DNA from: an uncultured Thalassospiraceae bacterium
Lineage (GTDB): Bacteria > Pseudomonadota > Alphaproteobacteria > Rhodospirillales > 2-02-FULL-58-16
Assembly (NCBI GenBank): GCA_964632795.1
Contig: CAZWEZ010000006.1
Coordinates: 1 to 61,859 of the forward strand
Direction of reading: 5' to 3'
DNA length: 61,859 bases
Positions 568-49,108 of this stretch are shown here, in pieces (the first letter of the stretch is position 1; each line of letters opens with the position of its first letter). The notes beneath the pieces were generated by a model. It saw only the letters and a program-made list of their open reading frames with translations. It searched no databases and was not told the origin of the DNA. The translations under genes and the position numbers were made by a program.

Positions 568-960
568 ATGGGCGATCTCCAGGAAGACTCGGATGCGGAT
601 TGCTTCGGGGAGGACGACGATCCGGCCCGCTTTCAGGGTAATGAAGACGACCAAAATTACCTTGACCAACAGTTACCCGGCGGTGGCGGGGTGCGTCCCA
701 AGGACGTTCTTTCCACCCTCGACAAGCTGAACTCCATCTTTTTCACATTCCTCAGGATCGGCGACCTCATCGACCGCAAGAAGATCGATTCCAACCGCAT
801 CTACACGACGACCCAGGCGGCCAGGTTTCTGGGCACCGACCGCACCGAGGTCGTTCGCCTGATCCGCGACGGCAAACTCGCCGCCAGGATGTTGAACCAG
901 AACTACATGATCCTGGGAAGAAGCATCGTCAGCTGCTTGAGCCACAAGACCAACGACTAG
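568..960 (+). CDS. Small protein with acidic N-terminus and C-terminal excisionase-like (HTH_17) helix-turn-helix
   Basis: GGGAG RBS. YTTTQAARFLGTDRTEVVRLIRDGKLAARML matches the excisionase/MerR-like HTH pattern. Confidence 0.75.
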   Translation: MGDLQEDSDADCFGEDDDPARFQGNEDDQNYLDQQLPGGGGVRPKDVLSTLDKLNSIFFTFLRIGDLIDRKKIDSNRIYTTTQAARFLGTDRTEVVRLIRDGKLAARMLNQNYMILGRSIVSCLSHKTND

Positions 961-1031
961 TACTGACTTTCATAATTCCTCGCCCCATGTGACGGTCTTG
1001 CGCGGCTTCCGGCTAGGAGCGTGTCGCGCCG
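958..1031. repeat. MITE remnant: solo 35-bp terminus of the 28321 element plus a 28-bp motif shared with the 7061 element
   Basis: 958-992 TAGTACTGACTTTCATAATTCCTCGCCCCATGTGA is identical to 28321-28355. 1004-1031 matches the reverse complement of 7251-7278 at 25/28. Confidence 0.85.
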
Positions 1032-1065
1032 CGGTAGGCCGACATCATGGCTTGGTGGGCGATGC

Positions 1066-3911: not shown

Positions 3912-4328
3912 GTGGACGTAGTGGAAAAGGACTTCAAATTCAAGCGCAGGACCTTCGAGGCCAACAAGGTCATCTTCGAGGAGGGGCGCCAGGGCAAGGC
4001 CGCCTACATGATCGTCTCCGGGGCGGTCGAGATCAGGAAGGGGTCCCGGGGCCGGAACCCGCTGGTCCTGGCCAAGCGCAAGAAGGGGGACGTCATCGGC
4101 GAGTTGGCGCTGATCGACAACCACCCCCACATGGCGGCCGCGGTGGCGGTGGTGAAAACCGAGGTCCTGGTGATCTCGCGCAAGGAGTTCCAGCACCGCA
4201 TCAAGGCCATGGACCCGGTGATGCAGGGCATCATCGGCCTGATGACCGAGCGCCTGCGCCAGATGGCCGACATGCTCCTCGAAGCCCGCGAGAACGTCAA
4301 CTGGTCCGACTGGAGCATGAACCCATAG
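3912..4328 (+). CDS. Stand-alone cyclic nucleotide-binding domain protein
   Basis: IFEEGRQGKAAYMIVSGAVEI...GDVIGELALIDNHPHMAAAVA is a cNMP-binding fold; there is no HTH. Confidence 0.9.
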   Translation: MDVVEKDFKFKRRTFEANKVIFEEGRQGKAAYMIVSGAVEIRKGSRGRNPLVLAKRKKGDVIGELALIDNHPHMAAAVAVVKTEVLVISRKEFQHRIKAMDPVMQGIIGLMTERLRQMADMLLEARENVNWSDWSMNP

Positions 4329-4379
4329 TTCCCCAGCGCCGACATCATCGGCGACCATTTCCTGCTGTCACCATTTCCA

Positions 4380-4907
4380 TTAATTGTCGCGGCTGTGGTC
4401 GTCGACGAATTTTCGCGACATTTCGCCGACGATCCTGGCGATGTTGGCCGGGTGTTCGGCCACCGGCGAGACGAACTTCACCTTGTTGGAATAGATCACC
4501 GCCTTGGTGACGAGGCTCCTCTTGTTGAACCTCAGCTTGCGGTATCCGGTGAAGGTCCAACCCTCCACGCCGATCATCGAAACGCAGCCGTAGACCGTGC
4601 CGTCGGTGGCCTTGGGCATCGCCGAATCGACGGTGATGGCGAGGGCGATGTCGATCTTGCTGTCGCGGATCTCGATGCCGGCGGCGGTAAGGGGTTCGGC
4701 GAAGGCGGACCTGAGGTCGTCCTCGCGGATCCCGCATTGTTCGGCCTCGAAGGCCAGGGCGACGAACAGGCCGATGGTGTTCACGCCTTCCAGCAGGTTG
4801 CCCCTGGTCTGGGCCCGCGAGGCGCCGGCCGACGCCAGGACCGCCGCCCACACCAGCGCGCCAACCAGACATCGGATAACGGTTCCCGTCCCCTCGCACG
4901 ATCGCAT
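4380..4907 (-). CDS. Hypothetical exported protein
   Basis: Signal-peptide-like N-terminus (ALVWAAVLASAGASRA) and genome-like codon usage; no family recognised. Confidence 0.65.
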   Translation of the reverse strand: MRSCEGTGTVIRCLVGALVWAAVLASAGASRAQTRGNLLEGVNTIGLFVALAFEAEQCGIREDDLRSAFAEPLTAAGIEIRDSKIDIALAITVDSAMPKATDGTVYGCVSMIGVEGWTFTGYRKLRFNKRSLVTKAVIYSNKVKFVSPVAEHPANIARIVGEMSRKFVDDHSRDN

Positions 4908-4978
4908 ACCCGGACTTTCCCTGCTTGCAAGGCGACCGTCAAGACCGCATCATCGGCAACCGCGGACGACGGACGAAA

Positions 4979-7039
4979 ATGACCCCACCCGATGACATGA
5001 AACTGGTGCCGATCGAGGACCTCCGGATGGTCAAGGGGGTGGCCCTGCCCAGCGTCATGACGTTCCGTCAGTTGATCATCACCGGTCCGCCGGGCTCGGG
5101 CAAGACGAGCCTCATCAACCGCCTCGGCGGGTGGCCCGAGGAGGGCTACATCGACCTCACCCTGAAGACCTGGTGGCGCGCCCAGGCGCTGACCTACCGG
5201 CCCCGCGAGGTCCACCTGGGGTTCCCCTTCGTCGGCCTCCCCGAGCCCCTGACCGTGTTCGAGAAGGACTGGCTGAGCCGGCATCCGCGGCCGGAGCTGG
5301 ACTTCGAGCGGATCGTCTTCCCGCCGCCCCGCAAGGGGTTCTTCCTCACCGAGCCGCGGACCCGGTTCGTGTTCGAGTTCCTGCTGCCCCCGGCCGAGGT
5401 GATTTACGCGTGGCGGCGCAAGCGCTCGCAACGGGGAGCCTATCCGGCCGACGACAACCTGAGCCTGGAACAGGTGCGGGACCAACTGGAGGTGTTCCGG
5501 GCCGCCGCCGTCCACTTCCACAACTCGAAGATGCAGGTCTACATCCGCCAGGCCGTCGCCGGCGCGCCGATGCGCTTCGACGACGGGGCGCGGGAGAGCT
5601 GGGCCGTCCCCCCGCCCGAGCCGGAACCGTCCGAGGCCTCCCCCCTGAGACGGCTGTACACCAGGTCGGGCAGGGCGCCGCGCTTCATGGCGACGGCCGA
5701 GCCGCAACCCCTACGAGGGGCGGTGCGGATTCCCTGGGACCACAACCCGTTCCAGATCCGCCTCGGCAAGCAGTACCTGTCCTTCTACCAGGAGTTCCCG
5801 CTCAACCCCCAGCTCCGGCGTCCGCCCCGGAGCTGGATCGCCGTCGACCCGGGAAACTTCTTTTCCGGCATCCGCGGCTTCGCCCGCATCGCCCCGGGAC
5901 GGCAGGTGTCGATCGGCCGCGGCAACGAAGACTACGACCGCCTGTTCCGGTTCTCCAACACCGTCGCCGCCCGCCATCTGAGCGTCGCCAACGAAAAGGG
6001 GGACCTGGTGCTCTCCGACCTGGACCCGGACGCCGAGACCTTCGTCACGGCGATCGAGGACCCCGAGGAGGCGAGCCGGATCGAGACCCGCCGCCAGGAG
6101 AACCTGGAACGGGTCCGCGAGGCCCTCGGCGGCCCGGTCGCCCTTCTTCCCCCCGAAGAGGCGCTGGAGACGCTTGGCGAGGTCAACCGGATCTTGGCCG
6201 GGGAACGCTACCGGGCGAAGGATTCGGAAGGCCGGCCGGGCGGGGTGCTGGAGATCCCGGCCAGGCTCCAGCCGGTGATCGTCGGCGACCTCCACGCCCA
6301 GGTCGACAACCTCCTCAAGGTGCTGTGCGAGAACGCCTTCCTCGAGCAGATGGCGGCCGACAAGGCGTGCATGATCATCCTCGGCGACGCCGTCCATTCG
6401 GAGGTCGACGGCCAGCTCGAGGACATGGAGAGCTCGCTGTTGATCATGGACCTGATCTTCAGGCTCAAGCGCCGGTTTCCCGACAACCTGTTCTACATCC
6501 GCGGCAACCACGACAGTTTCTCCCCCGAGGTCGGCAAGAGCGGCGTCCCCCAGAGCCTGATGATGCGCGACAGAATTCGCCGCGACAGGGGCCAGGACTA
6601 CGAGCAGGAGATGGTCCGCTTCCACCAGGGGCTGGCCTACGTGGCCAAGTCCGAAGGCTTCATCGCCTGCCACGCGGCGCCGGTGCGCTCGGAGGTGCCC
6701 CTCGAGATGCTGGTCGACCTGCGCAAGTACCCGGGGATGGCCCACGAGCTGGTCTGCAACCGGATCAAGCGGCCAGCCCATCCGCTGGGCTACACCAAGG
6801 GCGACGTCAAGCGCTTCCGCCGCTCCCTGGGCGTGCCCAAGCAGACGCCGCTGATCGTCGGCCACAACCCGCTGTCCAAGGAGGAAACCGCGTGGCCCAA
6901 CGCCGCCGGCTTCAAGAACCACCACATCACCTATTGCGGCCACCCCGACAAGCTGGCGGTGTTCATCCGCATCGGCCCCCAGATGGTGCCCCTCGAATAC
7001 CCCGCCGAACCCCTGATCGAGCTGATCAACGACGGCTGA
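4979..7039 (+). CDS. Fusion protein: P-loop NTPase + degenerate FHA domain + calcineurin-like (PPP) metallophosphoesterase
   Basis: Walker A GPPGSGKT; IGR...VAARHLSV...DLD (FHA-like); GDLHA, GDAVH, RGNHD, HAAP and GHNP phosphoesterase motifs. Start chosen at ATG 4979 (4925 or 4997 possible). Confidence 0.85.
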   Translation: MTPPDDMKLVPIEDLRMVKGVALPSVMTFRQLIITGPPGSGKTSLINRLGGWPEEGYIDLTLKTWWRAQALTYRPREVHLGFPFVGLPEPLTVFEKDWLSRHPRPELDFERIVFPPPRKGFFLTEPRTRFVFEFLLPPAEVIYAWRRKRSQRGAYPADDNLSLEQVRDQLEVFRAAAVHFHNSKMQVYIRQAVAGAPMRFDDGARESWAVPPPEPEPSEASPLRRLYTRSGRAPRFMATAEPQPLRGAVRIPWDHNPFQIRLGKQYLSFYQEFPLNPQLRRPPRSWIAVDPGNFFSGIRGFARIAPGRQVSIGRGNEDYDRLFRFSNTVAARHLSVANEKGDLVLSDLDPDAETFVTAIEDPEEASRIETRRQENLERVREALGGPVALLPPEEALETLGEVNRILAGERYRAKDSEGRPGGVLEIPARLQPVIVGDLHAQVDNLLKVLCENAFLEQMAADKACMIILGDAVHSEVDGQLEDMESSLLIMDLIFRLKRRFPDNLFYIRGNHDSFSPEVGKSGVPQSLMMRDRIRRDRGQDYEQEMVRFHQGLAYVAKSEGFIACHAAPVRSEVPLEMLVDLRKYPGMAHELVCNRIKRPAHPLGYTKGDVKRFRRSLGVPKQTPLIVGHNPLSKEETAWPNAAGFKNHHITYCGHPDKLAVFIRIGPQMVPLEYPAEPLIELINDG

Positions 7040-7060
7040 AACCAACGGCCCTTGATATGA

Positions 7061-7321
7061 TACCAAGGGGCACTGATAATGACCCATAGAGATCGCCTCG
7101 GCGTCCCGCCGGGTAGGAGGAAAGCCGCCGGCGATGCGGTGACATCGTCAAGGCTTTTCGACGCCCTCCGGCGGTACGCCGAGGCGACCGGAGGCGGCTT
7201 TCCAAGGCTTTCGGACAGCGTCGCGCGGCCCTTGTGATGGGCCGCCATCACGGCGAGCCACGCTCCTAGCCGAAAGCCTTGGAAAGCCGTCTCTATGGGT
7301 CATTATCAGTGCTCCTTGGTA
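7061..7321. mobile_element. 261-bp MITE-like element with 32-bp terminal inverted repeats and TA ends
   Basis: 7061-7092 TACCAAGGGGCACTGATAATGACCCATAGAGA vs the reverse complement of 7290-7321 (31/32). Internal perfect 19-bp IR at 7196-7214/7270-7288. Sits between convergent genes. Confidence 0.85.
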
Positions 7322-7373
7322 TTAGCCCCGGGGGTCGGCCAGGCCGGGTTTCGGGGAACCGCCGGACCCGGTG

Positions 7374-9488
7374 TCAGGCCAGTCCCAGCTCGGCCTTTTT
7401 CCGGGCGCACCAGGACTGCAGGATGCGGTCGGTGATCATGGCGATGAGGGCGATGTCGCCACCGGCGATGACGCCCCAGCCGAAGTTGGCCTTGGTAACC
7501 CCTTCGTAGACCAGCTGGCCCAGCCCCATCGTGCCGACGAGGGCGGCGATGACCAGCATCGCCAGCCCGAACATGATGGTCTGGTTGAGCCCCAGCATGA
7601 TTTCGGGAAGCGCCAGGGGAAGCTTCACCTGCCACAGGATTTGCGGCCTGGTGCAGCCGATCGATTCGGCGGCCTCGACGACGTCGGGGGCGACGTTGCG
7701 CAGGCCGCTTTCGGTGTAACGGATCGCCGGCACGATAGCGTAGATGATGATCGCCAGGAGGGCCGGAAATTCGCCGAGCAGGAACACCATGATGACCGGG
7801 ATCAGGAAGACGAACAGCGGCATCGTCTGCAGGGTGTCGTTGATCGGCCGCAGGAACGCCGACACCCGGTCGCTGTGGGCCGCCCAGATGCCGAGCCCGG
7901 CGCCCAGCACGAACGAGATGAACACCGCCGCCGCGGCAAGGTAGATGGTGAGCATGGCCCGCGACCACTCGCCCGTGACCAGGATGAAGCCGAGGCCGAG
8001 AAAGGCGAACAGCGCCAGCCGCCAACCGCCGACCTGATAGGCGAGGAGCGTCACCAGCAGGACGAACACCGGCCACGGCGTGCCGAGGGTGCCGAAGTAG
8101 TAGAACCCGCCGCAGACGGCGACGCCGACCACCGAGCGCCAGCTCGACAGCCGCCACGCCACGAACGCCAGCGCGGCCACGATCGCCACGTAGACGGCGA
8201 TCACCCCGGGGGTCAGTTCGAACCCCCAGGACCGGGGCCGGGCCACGCTCTCGAAGCCGATCCGCAAGGGCAGCATGAAATAATAGAGCGCCCCGGCCTT
8301 TATCGCGTCGGTCTGGTCCTTGTATTCGGTGACGACGTAGCTGACCGCGTCGTTGATCGGCTGCGCCGGGTAGAAGATCCACTCCTTGGGGAAGGTGCGC
8401 AGCGCCGGCGCCAGGTAGGCCAGGGCGATCAAGGCCACCGCCGCGCCAAGCACCATGTACAGGGTGGGACGATCGCGGAAGCCATGGCCCGTGACCCGCG
8501 CCCGCGCCGCGCCGGACCGCTCGGCGAAGCCGCGGCTGATGCGGTCCATCATCATCGCCATCAGCGCGATGACGATTCCGGCGAGGAAGCTCTGGCCGGT
8601 CTGGGCCTTGCGCATGGTGCTCAACACCTCCCAGCCGATGTCGGCGAAGCCGCCGATGACGGCGGCGATGATCACCATCGAAAGCGCCGCCATGATCGCC
8701 TGGTTGACCCCCATCATGATGTTGTGGGCCGCCGCCGGTATCTGCACCCACCCCAGAAGCTGGCGTTCGGTGCAGCCCGCCATGCGCCCCGATTCGACGA
8801 TCTCGGTGGGGACCAGGGCCAGCCCCAGCATGGTGTTGCGGACCATCGGCGGGACCGCGTAGATGACGCTGGCGACCAGCCCGACGACCGGGCCGAAGCC
8901 GAACAGCAGGAGAATGGGGATGAGATAGGCGAAGGTCGGCACCGTCTGCATGATGTCGAGCATCGGTACGATGACTTGGCGCGCGGCCGGCGACTTGAAG
9001 CCCCAGATCCCGATCACGAAGCCGATGGCGACGGCGAGCGGCACCGCGACCCCGACCAGGGCCAGGGTGTTCATGCTCTCTTCCCAATAGCCGACGACCA
9101 CCATGTAGAACAGCGAGAGGGCACTGAACACGGCCAGCCGCCAGCCCGAGGCGGCATGGGCCAGGGCGACGACGATGGCGATGGTGGCCGGCCACGGCAG
9201 CCAGTGAAGCAGGTTGCCGAGCCCCCTCATCGGCCAGTCGAGGAGCCAGCTGATGGCCCGGAACAACCATTTGAAGTTGGCGACGAACCACGCCATGGCG
9301 TCGTTCATCCAATCGCTGAACGGGATCACCCAGTCCTTGGGATAGGCCTTGATCCAGCCCACCTCGTCGCGGAGCCCGAAAAACACCACCGCAACCACGG
9401 CGACGACGATCCAGGAAACCAACGCCGGGTCGGCGCGGGGCGCCGACAACGGCGGCGCCGCGCCCCGGGTTTCCTCGGCCGCGGTCAT
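7374..9488 (-). CDS. Glycine betaine/proline-type ABC permease with two fused ProW domains
   Basis: Two copies of the D.MQT.P.F.YLIP...PA.A..IYA.PP..R.T..G...V...E.....G permease signature. Confidence 0.93.
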   Translation of the reverse strand: MTAAEETRGAAPPLSAPRADPALVSWIVVAVVAVVFFGLRDEVGWIKAYPKDWVIPFSDWMNDAMAWFVANFKWLFRAISWLLDWPMRGLGNLLHWLPWPATIAIVVALAHAASGWRLAVFSALSLFYMVVVGYWEESMNTLALVGVAVPLAVAIGFVIGIWGFKSPAARQVIVPMLDIMQTVPTFAYLIPILLLFGFGPVVGLVASVIYAVPPMVRNTMLGLALVPTEIVESGRMAGCTERQLLGWVQIPAAAHNIMMGVNQAIMAALSMVIIAAVIGGFADIGWEVLSTMRKAQTGQSFLAGIVIALMAMMMDRISRGFAERSGAARARVTGHGFRDRPTLYMVLGAAVALIALAYLAPALRTFPKEWIFYPAQPINDAVSYVVTEYKDQTDAIKAGALYYFMLPLRIGFESVARPRSWGFELTPGVIAVYVAIVAALAFVAWRLSSWRSVVGVAVCGGFYYFGTLGTPWPVFVLLVTLLAYQVGGWRLALFAFLGLGFILVTGEWSRAMLTIYLAAAAVFISFVLGAGLGIWAAHSDRVSAFLRPINDTLQTMPLFVFLIPVIMVFLLGEFPALLAIIIYAIVPAIRYTESGLRNVAPDVVEAAESIGCTRPQILWQVKLPLALPEIMLGLNQTIMFGLAMLVIAALVGTMGLGQLVYEGVTKANFGWGVIAGGDIALIAMITDRILQSWCARKKAELGLA

Positions 9489-21222: not shown

Positions 21223-21226
21223 ACCG

Positions 21227-22148
21227 ATTGGGGTCAGGTCTTGCTTTTTGCCCTGGCGATCCGACTGACCCAGCTGTAATGAAGCCCGAAATGGCGGCCG
21301 ATATCGGCCAGGGTGAAGGCACCGCTCCGCCAGGCTTCGCGGATGGCGTCGTCGCGTCCCGGCGTGCGGGCGGCGATCTCCCCTAGCGAGGCGGTCAGGT
21401 TGCGGCGTTGGGCGCGGGGCACTTCGCGGTCCTGCGTCGCCCCACCTGACAACTTCAGGGCGCTCGAAGCGAAATCGTCATCGCCGAGGAACACCTGCGC
21501 GGTGAGGTTCGCCCACAGGTCCTTGTCGGCGCCCTCGGCGACGAACGCCTCATAGGTCGCGCGGGCCGTCGCCGGCGCTTCCGCGAACATCGACAACAGC
21601 CCGTCGACGTCCAGCCATGGCGGCGGCTTTTCGGCGCCGGCCGTGGCCGGATAGCTGGTCCAGTGAGACTGGCGAACGTCCTCGGCGACACCGGCGCGGA
21701 CCGGGTTGAGGACGATGTAGCGGGCCGCCTCGAGGAGATGGGCGTCGCGGTCGACCAGGATCGCCTTGTAGCGGCCCTGGAACAGGTGTCCGACGCGGTC
21801 GTGCCGGCGGTTGACGCGTTGGGTGTAGACGCCGTTGAGTTGGCGCATGCCACGCGACAGGTCGCCGCCGGGGGTCTCGACAAGGAGGTGGTAGTGGTTG
21901 GCCATCAGGCAGTAGGCGAACACCCGCCATCCCAGCCGTCCGACCACCGTGTCCAGAACATCGAGGAAGGCCCGGCGATCCTTCGCGTCGAGGAAGATAT
22001 CGGCGCGGGCGTTGCCCCGGCTGGTGAGGTGGTAGACGGCGCCAGGAAATTCGATCCGAAGGGGACGCGACATGGCAACACCTCTGCTATTTCGACCCAC
22101 ACTCCCAGTCTAACCTCCGAATAGCAAAAAACAAGACCTGACCCCAAT
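21227..22148 (-). mobile_element. TIR-flanked Y1/HUH transposase element (RAYT-like, TIR-associated type)
   Basis: 25-bp inverted repeats ATTGGGGTCAGGTCTTG(C/T)TTTTTGC at 21227-21251 and 22124-22148 (24/25) enclose the transposase. Confidence 0.85.
21234..22073 (-). CDS. REP-associated/IS200-like tyrosine transposase with C-terminal HTH
   Basis: MSRPLRIEFPGAVYHLTSRGN, HUH motif CLMANHYHLL, LFQGRYKA, catalytic Tyr in YIVLNPVRAG, C-terminal LADIGRHFGLHYSWVSR. Confidence 0.93.
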   Translation of the reverse strand: MSRPLRIEFPGAVYHLTSRGNARADIFLDAKDRRAFLDVLDTVVGRLGWRVFAYCLMANHYHLLVETPGGDLSRGMRQLNGVYTQRVNRRHDRVGHLFQGRYKAILVDRDAHLLEAARYIVLNPVRAGVAEDVRQSHWTSYPATAGAEKPPPWLDVDGLLSMFAEAPATARATYEAFVAEGADKDLWANLTAQVFLGDDDFASSALKLSGGATQDREVPRAQRRNLTASLGEIAARTPGRDDAIREAWRSGAFTLADIGRHFGLHYSWVSRIARAKSKT

Positions 22149-22326
22149 GGGGAGTTCCGGGGACATGATACTTGACTGTCACTCTTACTGGGTGAATTCA
22201 GGTTGGAAGAGCACCGCGGCGGGTGTTGGGTGGATTCAGGGCGGGAATGAATGATCCGGGTCGATGACTGGACGTTTCGCCGCCTTGGACCAGCATGATC
22301 CGCCGGAAATTCCGCCCTCCCCCAAC

Positions 22327-23339: not shown

Positions 23340-23370
23340 TACCAAGGGGCACTGATAATGACCCTTGGTA
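23340..23370. repeat. 31-bp mini-derivative of the 7061 MITE end
   Basis: TACCAAGGGGCACTGATAATGACCC is identical to 7061-7085 and is closed by TTGGTA, giving a 9-bp self IR; abuts the LysR stop codon. Confidence 0.8.
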
Positions 23371-24252
23371 TTACGCCGCCGCCTCCAGCAGCCACTCGCG
23401 GAAGGCCTGGATCTTGGGCCGCCCGGCGGTGGCCTCGGGGCACACCACGTAGTAGGCGTACTCGGCCGGCAGGCTGAATTCGAAGGGCTTGACCAGGCGC
23501 CCCGAGGCCAGCTCGTCGGCCACCAGCACGCTGCGCCCGAGGGCCACCCCCGCCCCGGCGATGGCCGCCTGCATGACCAGGTGCGAGTGGTTGAACGTCG
23601 GCCCCCGGTCGGGGTCGACCTGGTCCGCCCCGGCCGCCATCAGCCACATCCGCCAGGTCACCCGCAGGTCGTCGTGGAGCAGCGTGAAGTGGCACAGATC
23701 CGACGGCCGGCGCAACGGCGTGCCCTCCCCCAGCAGCGACGGGCTGCACACCGGGAACAGTTCCTCGTTCATCAGCCGGACGATGTCCAGGCCAGCCCAT
23801 TCGCCGCGCCCGTAGCGGATCGCCATGTGGATGTCCTCGCGGGCGAAATCGACGGGGTGGTCGGCGGTGGTGATCCGGACGTCGATCTCGGGATGACGGG
23901 TCCTGAACCGGCCCAGGCGGGGCACCAGCCAGGTGGCGGCGAACGAATCGAGCGTGCTGACGGTCAGCACCCCGGCGCTCTCGCGGTCCTCCAGCCGTTC
24001 GACGGCCTCGGCGATCAGGTCCAGCGCCTCGCCCACCGCCGGCAGCAGGACCTGGCCCTCGTCGGTCAGGCGCAGGGTCCGGTTGAGGCGCCGGAACAGA
24101 AGCACGCCCAGCCGTTCCTCCAGGCCCTTGATCTGGTGGCTGACCGCCGCCTGGGTGACGTTGAGCTCGCCGGCCGCCCGGGTGAAGCTGAGGTGGCGGG
24201 CGGCGGCCTCGAAGGCGCGCAAGGCGTTGAGCGGCGGCAGGCGGCGGGCCAT
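23371..24252 (-). CDS. gcvA: LysR family regulator, GcvA subfamily
   Basis: MARRLPPLNALRAFEAAARHLSFTRAAGELNVTQAAVSHQIKGLE. The symbol denotes the subfamily, not proven orthology. Confidence 0.93.
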   Translation of the reverse strand: MARRLPPLNALRAFEAAARHLSFTRAAGELNVTQAAVSHQIKGLEERLGVLLFRRLNRTLRLTDEGQVLLPAVGEALDLIAEAVERLEDRESAGVLTVSTLDSFAATWLVPRLGRFRTRHPEIDVRITTADHPVDFAREDIHMAIRYGRGEWAGLDIVRLMNEELFPVCSPSLLGEGTPLRRPSDLCHFTLLHDDLRVTWRMWLMAAGADQVDPDRGPTFNHSHLVMQAAIAGAGVALGRSVLVADELASGRLVKPFEFSLPAEYAYYVVCPEATAGRPKIQAFREWLLEAAA

Positions 24253-28320: not shown

Positions 28321-28484
28321 TAGTACTGACTTTCATAATTCCTCGCCCCATGTGATCGCTGTTCCCGTTTCCCCGGGGCGTCGGCGGGGCTTGACGATGC
28401 GCCGGCATCGCCGGCGCGCCGCCTCCTGCCGGGGAAACGGGAACAGCGATCACATGGGGCGAGGAATTATGAAAGTCAGTACTA
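28321..28484. mobile_element. 164-bp MITE-like element with perfect 56-bp terminal inverted repeats
   Basis: 28321-28376 is the exact reverse complement of 28429-28484; the ends read TAGTACT; the right end supplies the boxB stop codon. Confidence 0.9.
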
Positions 28485-29900
28485 GGCGAACCGCACGTAG
28501 TCGAAATCCGGCGGCTGGCCGTTGATGCCGCGCGCCGGCGGGGCGATCCAGTTGGCCATCCGGCCCGGCTCGGTGACCGCGCCGCCCATCAGCGAGCGGA
28601 CGTAGGCGCGGTCTTCCCCGGTGGGCAGCCAGGAATCCACGTTGGCCGCCCATTCGCCGTCCGACACGAGGCGCCCGTCGGGCGACACGTTGGCCCCGGC
28701 GAAGGCGCCGATGGCGCGATTGAAGCCCCGGTGGGGCAACTCCAGGCGGGTCTCGATGCCATGCTCGGCGATGACCTTGTTCCATTTGCCGACGCCGCGC
28801 GCGCAGTCCTCGATATAGGCCTCGCGCAGGGACTCGTTGAGGCCGATCAGGGCCGGGCGTTCGACGGTGGAGATGCGCCCGTCGACGACCTCGGGCAGCT
28901 CGCGCACGGCGTCCTCCAGCAGGTGGTCGTCGTTGATCGCCGTCTCCTTGTAGCGGCCCTTGAGGCCGAGCGTGTAGTAGTTGGCGCTGTTGGTCGAGGA
29001 CTCCTGGCCAAACAGGTCCAGCGACAGGCTGTAATGGAAGTTGAGGTGCTTCTGGATGGTCGCCAGGTCGATGACCCCGTGCTTGCGCGCGTCGTCGGTC
29101 TTTTCGTCGCCCATCACCTCGCAGCAGCGCCGGACGATGCGCCCGACCCCGGTCTCGCCGACGAACATGTGGTGGGCTTCCTCGGTCAGCATGAAGCGGC
29201 AGCTCCGCGACAGCGGGTCGAAGGCGGATTCGGCCAGCGACGCCAACTGGTACTTGCCGTCGCGGTCGGTGAAGAAGGTGAACATGTAGAACGACAGCCA
29301 GTCCGGGGTCGGTTCGTTGAAGGCGTCGAGAATGCGCGGCCGGTCGGCATCTCCCGAGTGGCGCTCCAGCATGGCGTCGGCCTCCTCGCGGCCGTCGCGC
29401 CCGAAGTGGGCGTGCAGCAGGTAGACCATGGCCCACAGGTGGCGGCCCTCCTCGACGTTGACCTGGAACAGGTTGCGCAGGTCGTACAGCGACGGACAGC
29501 TCTTGCCCAGGTGGCGCTGCTGCTCGACCGAGGCCGGTTCGGTGTCGCCCTGGGTGACGATCAGCCGGCGCAGCGGGGCGCGGTACTCGCCGGGCACCTC
29601 CTGCCACGCCGGCTCGCCCTTGTGGATCCCGAAGTTGACCCGGCGGTCCTCTTCGGGCGCACTCAGGAAGATGCCCCAGCGGTAGTCGGGCATTTGCACG
29701 TGGCCGAAGTTGGCCCAGCCGCCGGGCTCGACGCTGATCGCCGTGCGCAGGTAGACCTCATGGGCCTGGCTGCCCTCCGGCCCCAGCTCCCGCCACCACT
29801 CCAGGAACCCCGGCTGCCAGGCCTCCAGCGCCCGTTGCAGGCGGCGGTCGTCGGCCAGCCCGACGTTGTTGGGAATCTTGTCGGCGTAATCGATGGTCAT
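28482..29900 (-). CDS. boxB: Benzoyl-CoA 2,3-epoxidase subunit B
   Basis: IPNNVGL.DDRRLQRALEAWQP, YRWGIF, QGDTEPASVEQQ, di-iron ExxH motifs EEGRH and EEAHH. Confidence 0.96.
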   Translation of the reverse strand: MTIDYADKIPNNVGLADDRRLQRALEAWQPGFLEWWRELGPEGSQAHEVYLRTAISVEPGGWANFGHVQMPDYRWGIFLSAPEEDRRVNFGIHKGEPAWQEVPGEYRAPLRRLIVTQGDTEPASVEQQRHLGKSCPSLYDLRNLFQVNVEEGRHLWAMVYLLHAHFGRDGREEADAMLERHSGDADRPRILDAFNEPTPDWLSFYMFTFFTDRDGKYQLASLAESAFDPLSRSCRFMLTEEAHHMFVGETGVGRIVRRCCEVMGDEKTDDARKHGVIDLATIQKHLNFHYSLSLDLFGQESSTNSANYYTLGLKGRYKETAINDDHLLEDAVRELPEVVDGRISTVERPALIGLNESLREAYIEDCARGVGKWNKVIAEHGIETRLELPHRGFNRAIGAFAGANVSPDGRLVSDGEWAANVDSWLPTGEDRAYVRSLMGGAVTEPGRMANWIAPPARGINGQPPDFDYVRFA

Positions 29901-33821: not shown

Positions 33822-33904
33822 GGGGGCGAGGAGAGATCGTCCCACCCCTCCTTGCCTGATGCCGGGAAAACCGCAAACCATTCCAACGACAGCCTGGGTC
33901 ACGA

Positions 33905-33972
33905 GCGGCTGTCACCGCCCCACCAGTGCCAGTTCCGTTCACCATCCTGAAGCTGACGAAACCCATCGGAAA
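33905..33972. repeat. 68-bp direct repeat, copy 1
   Basis: Ungapped 59/68 identity to 34691-34758. Confidence 0.85.
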
Positions 33973-34636: not shown

Positions 34637-34690
34637 GGCTATTGGCGTCCCGCGTGAGCAACTTCAGCTCAAGGTCAAACAAGGTCAACT

Positions 34691-34758
34691 GCGGCTGTCA
34701 CCGCCCCATCACCGCCAGGTCTGCTCACCACCCTGAAGCTGACGAAACCCGTGGGAAA
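34691..34758. repeat. 68-bp direct repeat, copy 2
   Basis: Matches 33905-33972; conserved GCGGCTGTCACCGCCCCA and CCTGAAGCTGACGAAACCC blocks. Confidence 0.85.
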
Positions 34759-35021
34759 GCTGGCATCCAGGCTTGAACGTCGGCTTGCTGTAGGAAACCG
34801 GCCGTGCTCTGTGATAGCCTGGAACCGCCGCTGACAACCACAAGTGGGCATATTGCCGGCTAGCAAGCAGCAGCGGGGGCTCGATTGCCTGTAACCGTCG
34901 CCAGTGAACCACATGTTTTCCGTACACCCTGAACGGCAGCCGGATCAGGCTTTTTCTTGAATCCCATTCGGACCAACATGGGAAATGTACCGATCAATGG
35001 GCACCGGCCGGGGAGAATTCG

Positions 35022-39959: not shown

Positions 39960-41000
39960 TCACTCCCGGCTTGCGGCGAGGGCCTCCCAGAACTTGTCGT
40001 TCCATGCCGCGATGGCGATCTCGGTGGCGGCGGCGAGCGCCGTGGCGACGCCCTCGGCGGGCTTCTCGGCGACCTTGGGGGTCGCCCTGAACTCCTTCAA
40101 CGAGACCCCGTCGAAGACCACCCGCCGGTCCTTGCGGTGGTACATGAAGACGGTGGAGAAGGTCTCGTCGTAGTTGTCGCCGACCTCCAGCACGTCGATG
40201 CTGATCTGGTAGATCGGCTTCTGGGACAGATCGTAGGGCACCTCGGTGATGAACATCGGGGCCAGGAACTCGTAAAGGGTGCCCTTGTGGATGCATTGCA
40301 ACAGGAGGTCGTAGTCGAAGGTGCCGAAGGGCTCGCCCTCGACCTCGGCGCGGCCTTCGTAGCGGATGGTGTAGCCGCACGAGGCGCCGCCGGAGACCGA
40401 CACCCGGCCCTTGATGTCGGCGCCCAGCGCGCCGTCGATCAACGCCAGCAGCGCCGGCGCGTAGACGAACCCCAGGTCCTCGTCCTGCTTCCTGACGGCC
40501 AGCCACGAGGCCTCCTTGGGCCGGCCCACCGCCTCGACGCGCTGGCCCTTGTCGAGGCGGCCGATCTTGCGGCTGGAGGTCTTGGGCTTGGCCCGGACGT
40601 TGATCTTCTTGATCACCAGGTAGGTTCCCGTCACCGGGGTCATGGGGATCGAGAAATCGGGCTTGATCTTCTTCTCGATGATCAACTCGAGTAGCGGCGC
40701 GTAGACGAACCCCAGGTCCTCGCCCTGCTTCCTGACGGCCAGCCAATTGCCGTCCTTGGACCGCCCCACCGCCTCCACCTTCTCGCCCTTCCTCAACACC
40801 ATGGTCCGCCGGCTGGAGGTCGACGGCCTGGTCCGGACGTTGACGTTGTCGATCACCCGGTAGGTCCCCGGATCGGGGGTCACCGGGACGCCGAGGAAGG
40901 TCTCCTGGGCGGCGGCCGAGGCGGCCAGCCCCAGGACCACGACCAACGATCCGATCCAGCCGCGCAGGCGGACAGGCTGTCGGTTGACGGTGGCGAACAT
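39960..41000 (-). CDS. Exported protein with two tandem bacterial SH3 domains
   Basis: Signal peptide; two NVR..P..SS....L.KG..VE.VG.....WL.V....G.VY repeats with an 80-aa period. Confidence 0.85.
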
Positions 41001-47552: not shown

Positions 47553-47774
47553 CCGGCTCCCGCCACCGGCATCGCGTACTTCCGGTGTTGGCTATCAGCA
47601 GCGGTTCCAGGCTACCACGGACCACGACCGCTTGGGAACGACAAGCCGACATTCCAAGTCCAAGAGCTTGTCCGCATTCCTTGTGACACGTCAAGTTTGG
47701 AGGCATGCGCCGTTCCTGGCCATGGGAAGGCCCTTCTTGTCTTGTCCGGGGAGATCGCGTAACCAGTTGCGGCC

Positions 47775-48695: not shown

Positions 48696-48738
48696 TATCA
48701 TACCGGCCGGCGCGAGCCCCTAAGTGTTTAAGGTTAGT

Positions 48739-49072
48739 TGCCCCTCAGTCGCCGGGCGGGCCGGTGGCCCTTGGCTACGGGCCTTCGGCCCGACGCGCTG
48801 GCGCGCTTTTCGACATGGCAAGGGCCATGTCGAATCTATAAAGCGATCAGCGCCGGGTTTGTATCCAGCGCCAGTTTTTGGATCGGTTTATCGAGGGGAC
48901 CAGCCCAGCCCTATCAAGCATGTCTCCAAACCGGCATGGCCCTTCGCCATGCCGGCAAGCGCGACCGCGCGTCGGCGCTTATGCGCCGTAGCCAAGGGCC
49001 GCAGGCCCGCCCGGCGATTGAGGGGCATTGAAAACTACAAGGGCCGCAGGCCCGCCCGGCGATTGAGGGGCA
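48739..49072. repeat. REPIN-like element: inverted ~92-bp multi-hairpin units plus a partial third copy
   Basis: 48739-48829 aligns to the reverse complement of 48935-49027; 49038-49072 is identical to 48993-49027. Confidence 0.85.
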
Positions 49073-49108
49073 ATAATAACGGCGAGTCGATTCATCGGCT
49101 CGCCGGTA

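Follow-up and report, generated by a model that had tools for sequence, protein, structure and literature searches.

Here, we report that E1 and E2, two short repeats of an uncultured Thalassospiraceae bacterium from marine sediment, are members of a single superfamily of MITEs, i.e., non-autonomous DNA transposons, which is found in uncultured Alphaproteobacteria of marine and soil habitats. Both were found in a stretch of 61,859 nucleotides, hereafter called the window, and both are small (261 and 164 nt, respectively) and free of a transposase gene, as expected of MITEs. The original prediction had assigned them to two MITE families with unrelated termini and a common core. The view of two unrelated families has to be given up, since all end types share a homologous interior of approximately 200 nt whose length is constant; E2 derives from the two-module plan by deletion and retains one module. 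As the best overall explanation, we favour with moderate confidence a MITE superfamily with a conserved folded interior, whose ends vary with the transposase and whose module would act as a single strand, most likely as RNA.

The members and parts of members present in the window are the following:

7061-7321, plus strand: E1, a full-length MITE with two modules, TACCAAGG type, 261 nt.
7061-7092, plus strand: left TIR of E1, with its partner at 7290-7321.
7290-7321, minus strand: right TIR of E1, the partner of the left TIR.
7093-7187, plus strand: hairpin A of E1, i.e., outer stem P1a (7093-7112 with 7168-7187) around module X, from the fold and the alignment of 68 elements.
7115-7164, plus strand: module X of E1 (covariance model, 78.4 bits), in the order AGGAG, 8-bp helix P2, CGCCG, hairpin P3 (CGATG/CATCG), CAAG, P2', CGACGC.
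7188-7194, plus strand: central mini-hairpin CC-GGA-GG of E1; the family consensus is CC(C)-GNA-(G)GG.
7195-7289, minus strand: hairpin B of E1, i.e., outer stem P1b (7195-7214 with 7270-7289) around module Y.
7218-7267, minus strand: module Y of E1, a diverged second copy that the original prediction did not contain (covariance model, 59.7 bits).
28321-28484, minus strand: E2, a short one-module MITE of the GTAC.. type, 164 nt, with a TA on either side of 28323-28482.
28378-28427, minus strand: the single module of E2, X type (covariance model, 71.6 bits).
958-1042, plus strand: truncated end of the GTAC.. type, Y side, breaking off inside the module (module part approximately 1005-1042).
23340-23371, plus strand: mini-remnant of a TACCAAGG-type element, 32 nt (TACCAAGGGGCACTGATAATGACCCTTGGTA), two ends without an interior.

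Four sequence blocks had been described as sharing the same spacing in both elements, and this proved to be exact. The 51-nt core AGGAGG-N5-CGCCGGCGATGC-N5-CATCGTCAAG-N6-CGACGCC occurs at 7115-7165 on the plus strand and at 28377-28427 on the minus strand with equal spacing and no mismatch, and no match was obtained across 100 dinucleotide-preserving shuffles. The GCGATG/CATCGT hairpin with differing loops is likewise present in both elements. Module Y was found on the opposite strand inside E1 with a looser pattern derived from the shared blocks. It carries compensatory changes in the hairpin (GTGATG/CATCAC) as well as in the outer helix (CGTGGC/GCCGCG). The layout of E1 is TIR, 21 nt, module, centre, inverted module, 21 nt, TIR, and the start of the module lies 55-58 nt from its own element end, for both modules of E1 and for E2 alike. 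The inverted-repeat arms of E1 measure 33 nt (7060-7092 and 7290-7322) and are 97% complementary. E2 is a near-perfect palindrome, formed by TIR plus P1a with the single module in the loop, and its arms of 67 nt are 93% complementary. Folding compared with shuffled sequence gives z = -16 for E1 and z = -19.5 for E2.

E1 is flanked by TGA (7058-7060) and TTA (7322-7324), an imperfect 3-bp TNA duplication, and its neighbours are convergent: a Metallophos-domain gene ends at 7039 and an ABC permease gene at 7374. E2 also lies between convergent genes. The TAG stop of the gene at 28482-29900 (minus strand) is made up of the duplicated TA and the first G of E2. In the fragment at 958-1042, the TIR is identical to that of E2 over 36 nt and continues as GACGG..GGCTAGGAGCG (covariance model, E 0.04); its TA and the following G provide the TAG with which the HTH_17 gene (568-960) ends. 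Mini-remnants of 32-40 nt, which consist of two TACCAAGG-type ends only, were observed in the window at 23340-23371 and in locus L039 at approximately 4734-4780; they may be internal deletions or excision products.

Several further observations concern the window and the element ends. A promoter-like site leads into E1 (7052-7080), with the -35 box TTGATA coming from the flank, a 17-nt spacer and the -10 box GATAAT in the TIR; it is a single consensus match with 10 of 12 positions in agreement. A TAAT-like box is located approximately 15-20 nt from the tip in all end types. Positions 48738-49073 hold three inverted copies of a 36-42-nt sequence (TTGCCCCTCAGTCGCCGGGCGGGCCGGTGGCCCTTGGCTACGG) that are 92-93% complementary and represent a separate small repeat family. 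In a region of lower G+C content, there are a 66-nt inverted repeat pair (34775-34840 and 47589-47654, 77%, 12.7 kb apart) and an 89-nt direct repeat (33884-33972 and 34670-34758, 80%, 786 nt apart). Two 240-nt tandem units at 40455-40888, 78-86% identical, are probably a repeated domain inside a gene.

The pattern AGGAG-N10-12-GNGATG-N4-8-CATCNNNANG-N6-CGACGC was run on 185,579 species genomes and returned at least 114 loci in approximately 55 alphaproteobacterial MAGs; since this pattern fixes the conserved blocks and the matches listed are all MAGs, the distribution as well as the conservation of the blocks is partly defined by the pattern, a dependence which is loosened only in part by nhmmer and covariance model searches. 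All of these loci, at least 114 in number, come from metagenome-assembled genomes, nearly all of them Alphaproteobacteria. Among the matches listed, the host groups are Rhodospirillales, Kiloniellales, Thalassospiraceae, Inquilinaceae, Hyphomicrobiaceae, Hoeflea and Sphingomonadales; Denitrobaculum, Hwanghaeella and Magnetovibrio are also represented by MAGs. Two typical elements, L041 and L088, sit on contigs binned as Akkermansiaceae and Acidimicrobiia; these are more likely mis-binned alphaproteobacterial contigs than a case of true spread. The core pattern had no match in 2.9 million IMG/VR viral contigs, a search that doubles as a specificity control, and blastn of E1 against the PLSDB plasmids gave no match. 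In Rfam, no match reached the gathering score anywhere in the window, and the E-value mode returned only chance-level matches (E of approximately 1 or more) for 7000-7400. A description of a family with this module was not found in the literature. The modules thus represent a new and abundant candidate family of structured nucleic acids that has no entry in Rfam.

Whatever the end sequence, the length of the elements is nearly fixed at approximately 261-270 nt, apart from a few forms of 163-167 nt. The canonical interior consists of two inward-facing modules and the central mini-hairpin. 68 complete elements from approximately 45 MAGs can be aligned from end to end, in the order TIR, GATCG, P1a, module X, P1a', CGA-CC(C)-GNA-(G)GG, CGGC-P1b, inverted module Y, P1b', GTC, TIR. 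Their pairwise identity has a mean of 57% and a minimum of 33%, and 48 of the 68 lengths lie within 1 nt of each other. One-module derivatives, namely E2, L085 and L004, have arisen in different sublineages. When E1 is compared with L007, which is a full-length relative of E2, identity amounts to 35-36% in the TIR, 60% in hairpin A and 75% in hairpin B; hence the interior is more conserved than the ends. The TIRs of E1 and E2 had been said to share nothing. This holds for the outermost 20 nt or so, which are dissimilar (36% between E1 and the full-length E2 relative), but E1 and E2 do have in common the inner TIR box (CCCATAGAGATCGC and CCCATGTGATCGC, respectively), the distance of 55-58 nt between module and element end, and the interior as a whole.

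A free REP core, mostly without TIRs, had been named as the alternative to a cargo carried by MITEs. Among the 187 modules found by nhmmer in the loci (at least 114), a TIR partner was found for 136, another 40 are truncated at contig ends and 11 lack a partner. With 136 of the 147 assessable modules partnered, and no TIR-less copy of the core in the window (covariance model, filters off), this scenario fails. Most of the 11 modules without a partner show a recognisable terminus or a nested insertion. Nested MITEs are seen in L077, L072 and L026, e.g., a TACCAAGG-type element inside a GTGTCC-type one, and such nesting accounts for most modules lacking a TIR partner.

Evidence for a fold comes from positions which the search left free. 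The 6-nt arms of P2, adjoining AGGAG and CGACGC, are free positions of the pattern, and in 109 distinct modules they pair in 611 out of 654 cells, whereas shuffled partners reach 348 on average and 387 at most. In alignment A1 (121 sequences), 94.1% of the cells are paired, against 77.7% after shuffling and 27-46% when the partners are slid by 1-3 columns; cells with a double change number 286, against 88 in the shuffled case. The covariance model R1 was built from this alignment. It finds 203 modules in 717 kb of loci (at least 114 loci), typically as plus/minus pairs approximately 104 nt apart. In alignment A2, made with the model from the 150 best matches, 95.2% of the cells are paired, 435 cells carry double changes compared with 114 after shuffling, and all eight P2 pairs covary. 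Hairpin P3 covaries, too, with the variants GTGATG/CATCAC, GTGGTG/CACCAC and GCGATA/TATCGT. Building and searching with such a model had been proposed along with the original prediction, and its central claim, a conserved structured core under selection of its own, comes out strengthened by this covariation as well as by the excess of G:T over A:C pairs described below.

The AGGAGG block, which had been taken as SD-like, is better understood as a part of the fold. G12:C69 is an invariant pair, G13·A68 and A14·G67 likely form a tandem G·A inside AGGAG/CGACGC, and pair 15:66, which joins the last G of AGGAG to the first C of CGACGC, covaries, with G:C found in 132 sequences and A:U in 11. Beyond the tandem G·A region follow the helix, an internal loop (CGCNG against CAAG) and the 5-bp hairpin CGATG/CATCG. 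Three known signals were compared with the module and discarded. For an SD sequence with a start codon, the spacing from AGGAG to ATG is approximately 15 nt and the loop varies from 4 to 8 nt, so that no reading frame is kept. For a kink-turn, the tandem G·A has Watson-Crick pairs on both sides (12:69 and 15:66), and by eye no register was found with a C-stem of more than 1 bp. A canonical intrinsic terminator does not apply, since no T-run follows hairpin A or B; the lone terminator-like match for E1 lies at its left junction.

The pairs that are not Watson-Crick show on which strand the fold is under selection. On the strand that carries AGGAG in sense, the P2 cells of the 109 modules comprise 126 G:T but only 5 A:C. 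Counted on their own sense strands, the X modules have a ratio of 68:3 and the Y modules one of 59:1, and the excess of G:T over A:C ranges from approximately 25 to 60 to 1. The sense strands of X and Y are opposite physical strands of one element. Since mutational bias cannot yield opposite signs in arms 100 nt apart, we infer that it is as a folded single strand that each module is selected and works, with a 5' to 3' reading that leads inward from the element end next to it. The TIR-TIR pairs give 67:67, so that the TIR helix shows no strand bias and is not under single-strand selection. In the outer stems P1a and P1b, the strand bias shifts with the strand from which the structure was predicted.

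Tabulating the ends, as had also been proposed, shows that at least eight end types share this interior: TACCAAGG.., GTAC.., GTGGCC.., GTGGA.., GTGTC.., GGAGCC.., GAGCAT.. and GGGTCT... They are linked by intermediates, and those joining TACCAAGG to GTACCCACTTTCATAA, e.g., L079 (TAATACCAACTTTCATAA), L100 and L025, speak against two separate families as well. TACCAAGG-type elements have TNA on both sides in 28 out of 33 cases and identical 3-nt flanks in 23 out of 33, which indicates a 3-bp duplication. In the other end types, a TA is found on either side and the bases outside it vary, which indicates a 2-bp duplication, usually within CTAG. The original prediction had the core moved by at least two transposase systems. 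Several kinds of ends and the two duplications, 3-bp TNA and 2-bp TA, are in agreement with it; the transposases may belong to different families, but a single partner family, IS1182, was identified.

Empty sites exist for both elements. Contigs of two metagenome runs skip 7061-7322 and have GG at the junction instead of the expected TNA; the E1 site thus deviates from a clean TNA. For E2, one contig lacks 28320-28481 and reads GCC-CTAG-GCG at this place, as predicted by a TA duplication. Metagenome reads cover the element 100-500 times as deeply as its flanks. Runs considered as a possible source of RNA reads behave like metagenomes of DNA and carry no information on the strand.

A screen of the loci for ORFs bounded by inverted repeats was very noisy and delivered one real IS, located at 3950-5472 of locus L010. 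It has the ends TA-GGAGCCTGTCCGAGA and codes for a 440-aa transposase of the IS1182 family with DDE_Tnp_1 and DUF772 domains (NF033551, 380 bits). Relatives with the ends C-TA-GGAGCCTGTCCGAGTAATG are abundant in metagenomes from soil and sediment, with more than 490 stretches, and these ends are found in approximately 50 of the 80 metagenomic loci retrieved (L115-L194). These IS ends are the same as those of the GGAGCC-type MITE L028 over 20 nt; in L060 the agreement covers 14 nt, and in other GGAGCC copies fewer. None of the 80 IS1182-family loci contains the module. The interior is therefore not a deletion product of that IS, and the GGAGCC subfamily uses ends of IS1182 type. By eye, several end types are similar to the consensus of IS1182-type ends, G..CCTG...AG.AAT. 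An autonomous partner for the TACCAAGG and GTAC ends did not turn up in the loci (at least 114), which hold only MITEs, solo ends and mini-remnants of these types. IS1182-family transposases are DDE transposases related to IS5, and some elements of the IS5 group and of PIF/Harbinger typically make TNA duplications. In a comparison with IS630/Tc1-mariner elements, the TA duplication in CTAG fits the E2 type, but the lone identified partner is of the IS1182 family and the E1-type duplications have 3 bp, a length that IS630 is not known to make. For elements of the IS5/IS427 group, duplications of 2 bp are documented, and for one IS1182 member a duplication of 4 bp (PMC3281130).

The insertion sites stand in a close relation to gene ends. 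At 48 of 163 assessable element sides, a gene ends at most 40 nt away and reads into the element, and in 30 of these 48 (30 of 163 sides) the stop codon overlaps the terminal TA or TNA. About a third of the elements lie within a stop codon, which is regenerated; in the window, this applies to two of three insertions (E2 and the fragment at 958-1042). As TA targets are rare outside stop codons in G+C-rich genomes, target choice together with selection against gene disruption may explain this preference. Where an element abuts the stop of a gene, the transcripts of that gene must enter it.

Implementing these observations, we propose the following course of events. DDE transposases supplied in trans would move the elements. 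Transcripts from a flanking gene would cross the stop codon into the element, where the module would fold in the RNA. Because the modules face inward, a transcript arriving from either side would meet a sense module first, and the element would work in both orientations. The conserved unpaired bases, i.e., the tandem G·A, the CGCNG/CAAG loop and the YGG loop, are probably a binding site for a host factor or a processing or stabilising signal, and with such a signal, insertions would be tolerated or useful. Lineages retaining the module would then persist, while the ends adapt to the transposase available. That the module functions as RNA is plausible, but on this part our confidence stays at or somewhat below an even level.

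Other explanations have to be weighed against this proposal. As the main rival, the module could act as folded single-stranded DNA, either on the template of the lagging strand or in an intermediate of transposition or repair, thereby aiding mobilisation or copying, or it could be the target of a hairpin-specific Y1/HUH enzyme of RAYT type; with two inward copies, a sense copy would then be available no matter which strand is exposed. Tolerance of G·T fits folded single-stranded DNA as well as RNA, so that the strand bias gives no verdict between the two. GNA triloops, as in the central C-GNA-G hairpin, and tandem G·A pairs are classic motifs that are stable in DNA, too, and a benefit to its own propagation is the simplest reason for conservation in a selfish element. 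A REP-associated tyrosine transposase is moreover encoded in the window (21237-22100). We nevertheless consider the DNA alternative unlikely. An IS1182-family transposase whose elements carry the ends of one subfamily does without the module, the RAYT gene has unrelated 28-nt inverted repeats of its own with no link to the modules found, and the modules always occur with TIRs and target duplications, which are not products of Y1 enzymes. Quite unlikely, in our view, is an independent capture of the cargo by two or more unrelated transposase systems, with elements unrelated beyond the core. The dissimilar outer TIRs of E1 and E2, the different duplications (3-bp TNA and 2-bp TA) and the end type that copies 20 nt of an IS end around an interior foreign to this IS would all follow from it. 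Homology, however, extends over the whole interior, down to the lengths of its stems, its central hairpin and the inner TIR box, and the module keeps a fixed distance of 55-58 nt from the end; the ends of L079, L100 and L025 are intermediate; and end types resembling the IS1182-type consensus fit a gradual divergence or an exchange of ends within one lineage.

Two simpler origins of the core fare considerably worse. It could have been left over, in MITEs that arose by deletion, from related parent transposase genes, either from their 5' region (SD and start codon) or from their coding part. An AGGAGG followed by ATG resembles a translation start, and many MITEs are deletion derivatives of ISs. 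The spacing of approximately 15 nt, the 4-8-nt loop and the lack of a frame are at odds with this origin, as are the conservation of covarying helices rather than codons, the 80 IS1182-family loci without a module and the presence of the module at both ends facing inward; it is very improbable. Scarcely credible is the idea that the core is an ordinary REP-like palindrome, e.g., a CGTC-tagged REP, with MITEs inserted into or around it. The complement of the module begins with GCGTCG and thus contains a CGTC head, and the CGTC-tagged REPs share with our modules the host group, being frequent in Alphaproteobacteria, the CGTC head on one strand, the head-to-head dimers and the lack of a known dedicated transposase (Di Nocera et al. 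2013, PMC3733652). Such a REP, however, is a single stem of 8-9 bp with a 4-5-nt loop and a CCA tail (PMC3733652), which does not fit a module of approximately 50 nt with two helices and two internal loops. Only the CGTC head was matched, and this candidate was rejected; there is also no free copy in the window, and 136 of 147 modules keep a fixed distance from TIRs.

REPs and REPINs with their RAYTs resemble the modules described here in their inverted pairs of imperfect hairpins, conserved unpaired bases, selection on a single strand and position downstream of genes. REPINs, in contrast, have neither TIRs nor target duplications and flank their own RAYT, whereas our modules lie inside elements bounded by TIRs. 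An assignment to REP/REPIN was rejected in view of the lack of TIR-less copies in the window, a head that reads YAG-GAG rather than a fixed GTAG, and the different repeats around the RAYT of the window. This RAYT is a 288-aa ORF on the minus strand at 21237-22100 (Pfam Y1_Tnp, 1.1e-12; NCBIfam REP_Tyr_transpos, 80.4 bits at a cut-off of 80). It is flanked (21224-22151) by the 28-nt inverted repeats ATTGGGGTCAGGTCTTGCTTTTTGC, a 'TIRYT'-like arrangement, with no other copy in the window or in 194 loci.

With known bacterial MITEs, e.g., Correia/NEMIS of Neisseria, ERIC, RUP and Nezha, the family shares the small non-coding size, the TIRs and short TA-containing duplications, as well as many copies next to genes, strong folding and mobilisation in trans by IS transposases. 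It differs from them in that the interior rather than the TIR is the most conserved part, with a fixed length and a covarying fold over at least eight end types and several alphaproteobacterial orders. Two inward modules under strand-specific selection and an interior that is not a deletion product of the IS1182 partner also set it apart. The GGAGCC-type MITEs agree with a group of IS1182-family ISs in 20 nt at the termini and in the TA (CTAG) target and in nothing else, and the MITEs encode nothing.

The animal CORE-SINEs, V-SINEs and Deu-SINEs contain a conserved central domain of unknown function that persists while the parts needed for mobilisation are exchanged. In this respect they are similar to our family, but they are eukaryote retroposons, whereas the elements presented here are bacterial DNA transposons whose conserved part has a demonstrable fold. 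Taking this likeness further, the interior may be the real evolutionary unit: a passenger of structured RNA (or single-stranded DNA) with a fold for a host factor, which repeatedly swaps its terminal adaptors and so makes use of different transposases. It would be a bacterial counterpart of the CORE-SINEs and, by way of regenerated stops, an orientation-independent 3'-UTR element behind hundreds of genes of marine Alphaproteobacteria. We regard this extended reading as possible but doubtful.

MITEs are usually regarded as decayed ISs in which the ends are the sole constrained part. In the family described here the situation is reversed: the ends are variable, and many genera have conserved an interior of approximately 200 nt that contains two covarying modules and does not change in length. 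As one end type matches the ends of IS1182-family ISs, the family allows a clean test of the swapping of ends between transposases. It is also a natural case in which to ask what, besides transposase binding, lets a non-autonomous element succeed. For uncultured marine Alphaproteobacteria, the elements may represent a widespread 3'-end element that is installed by insertion targeted at stop codons.
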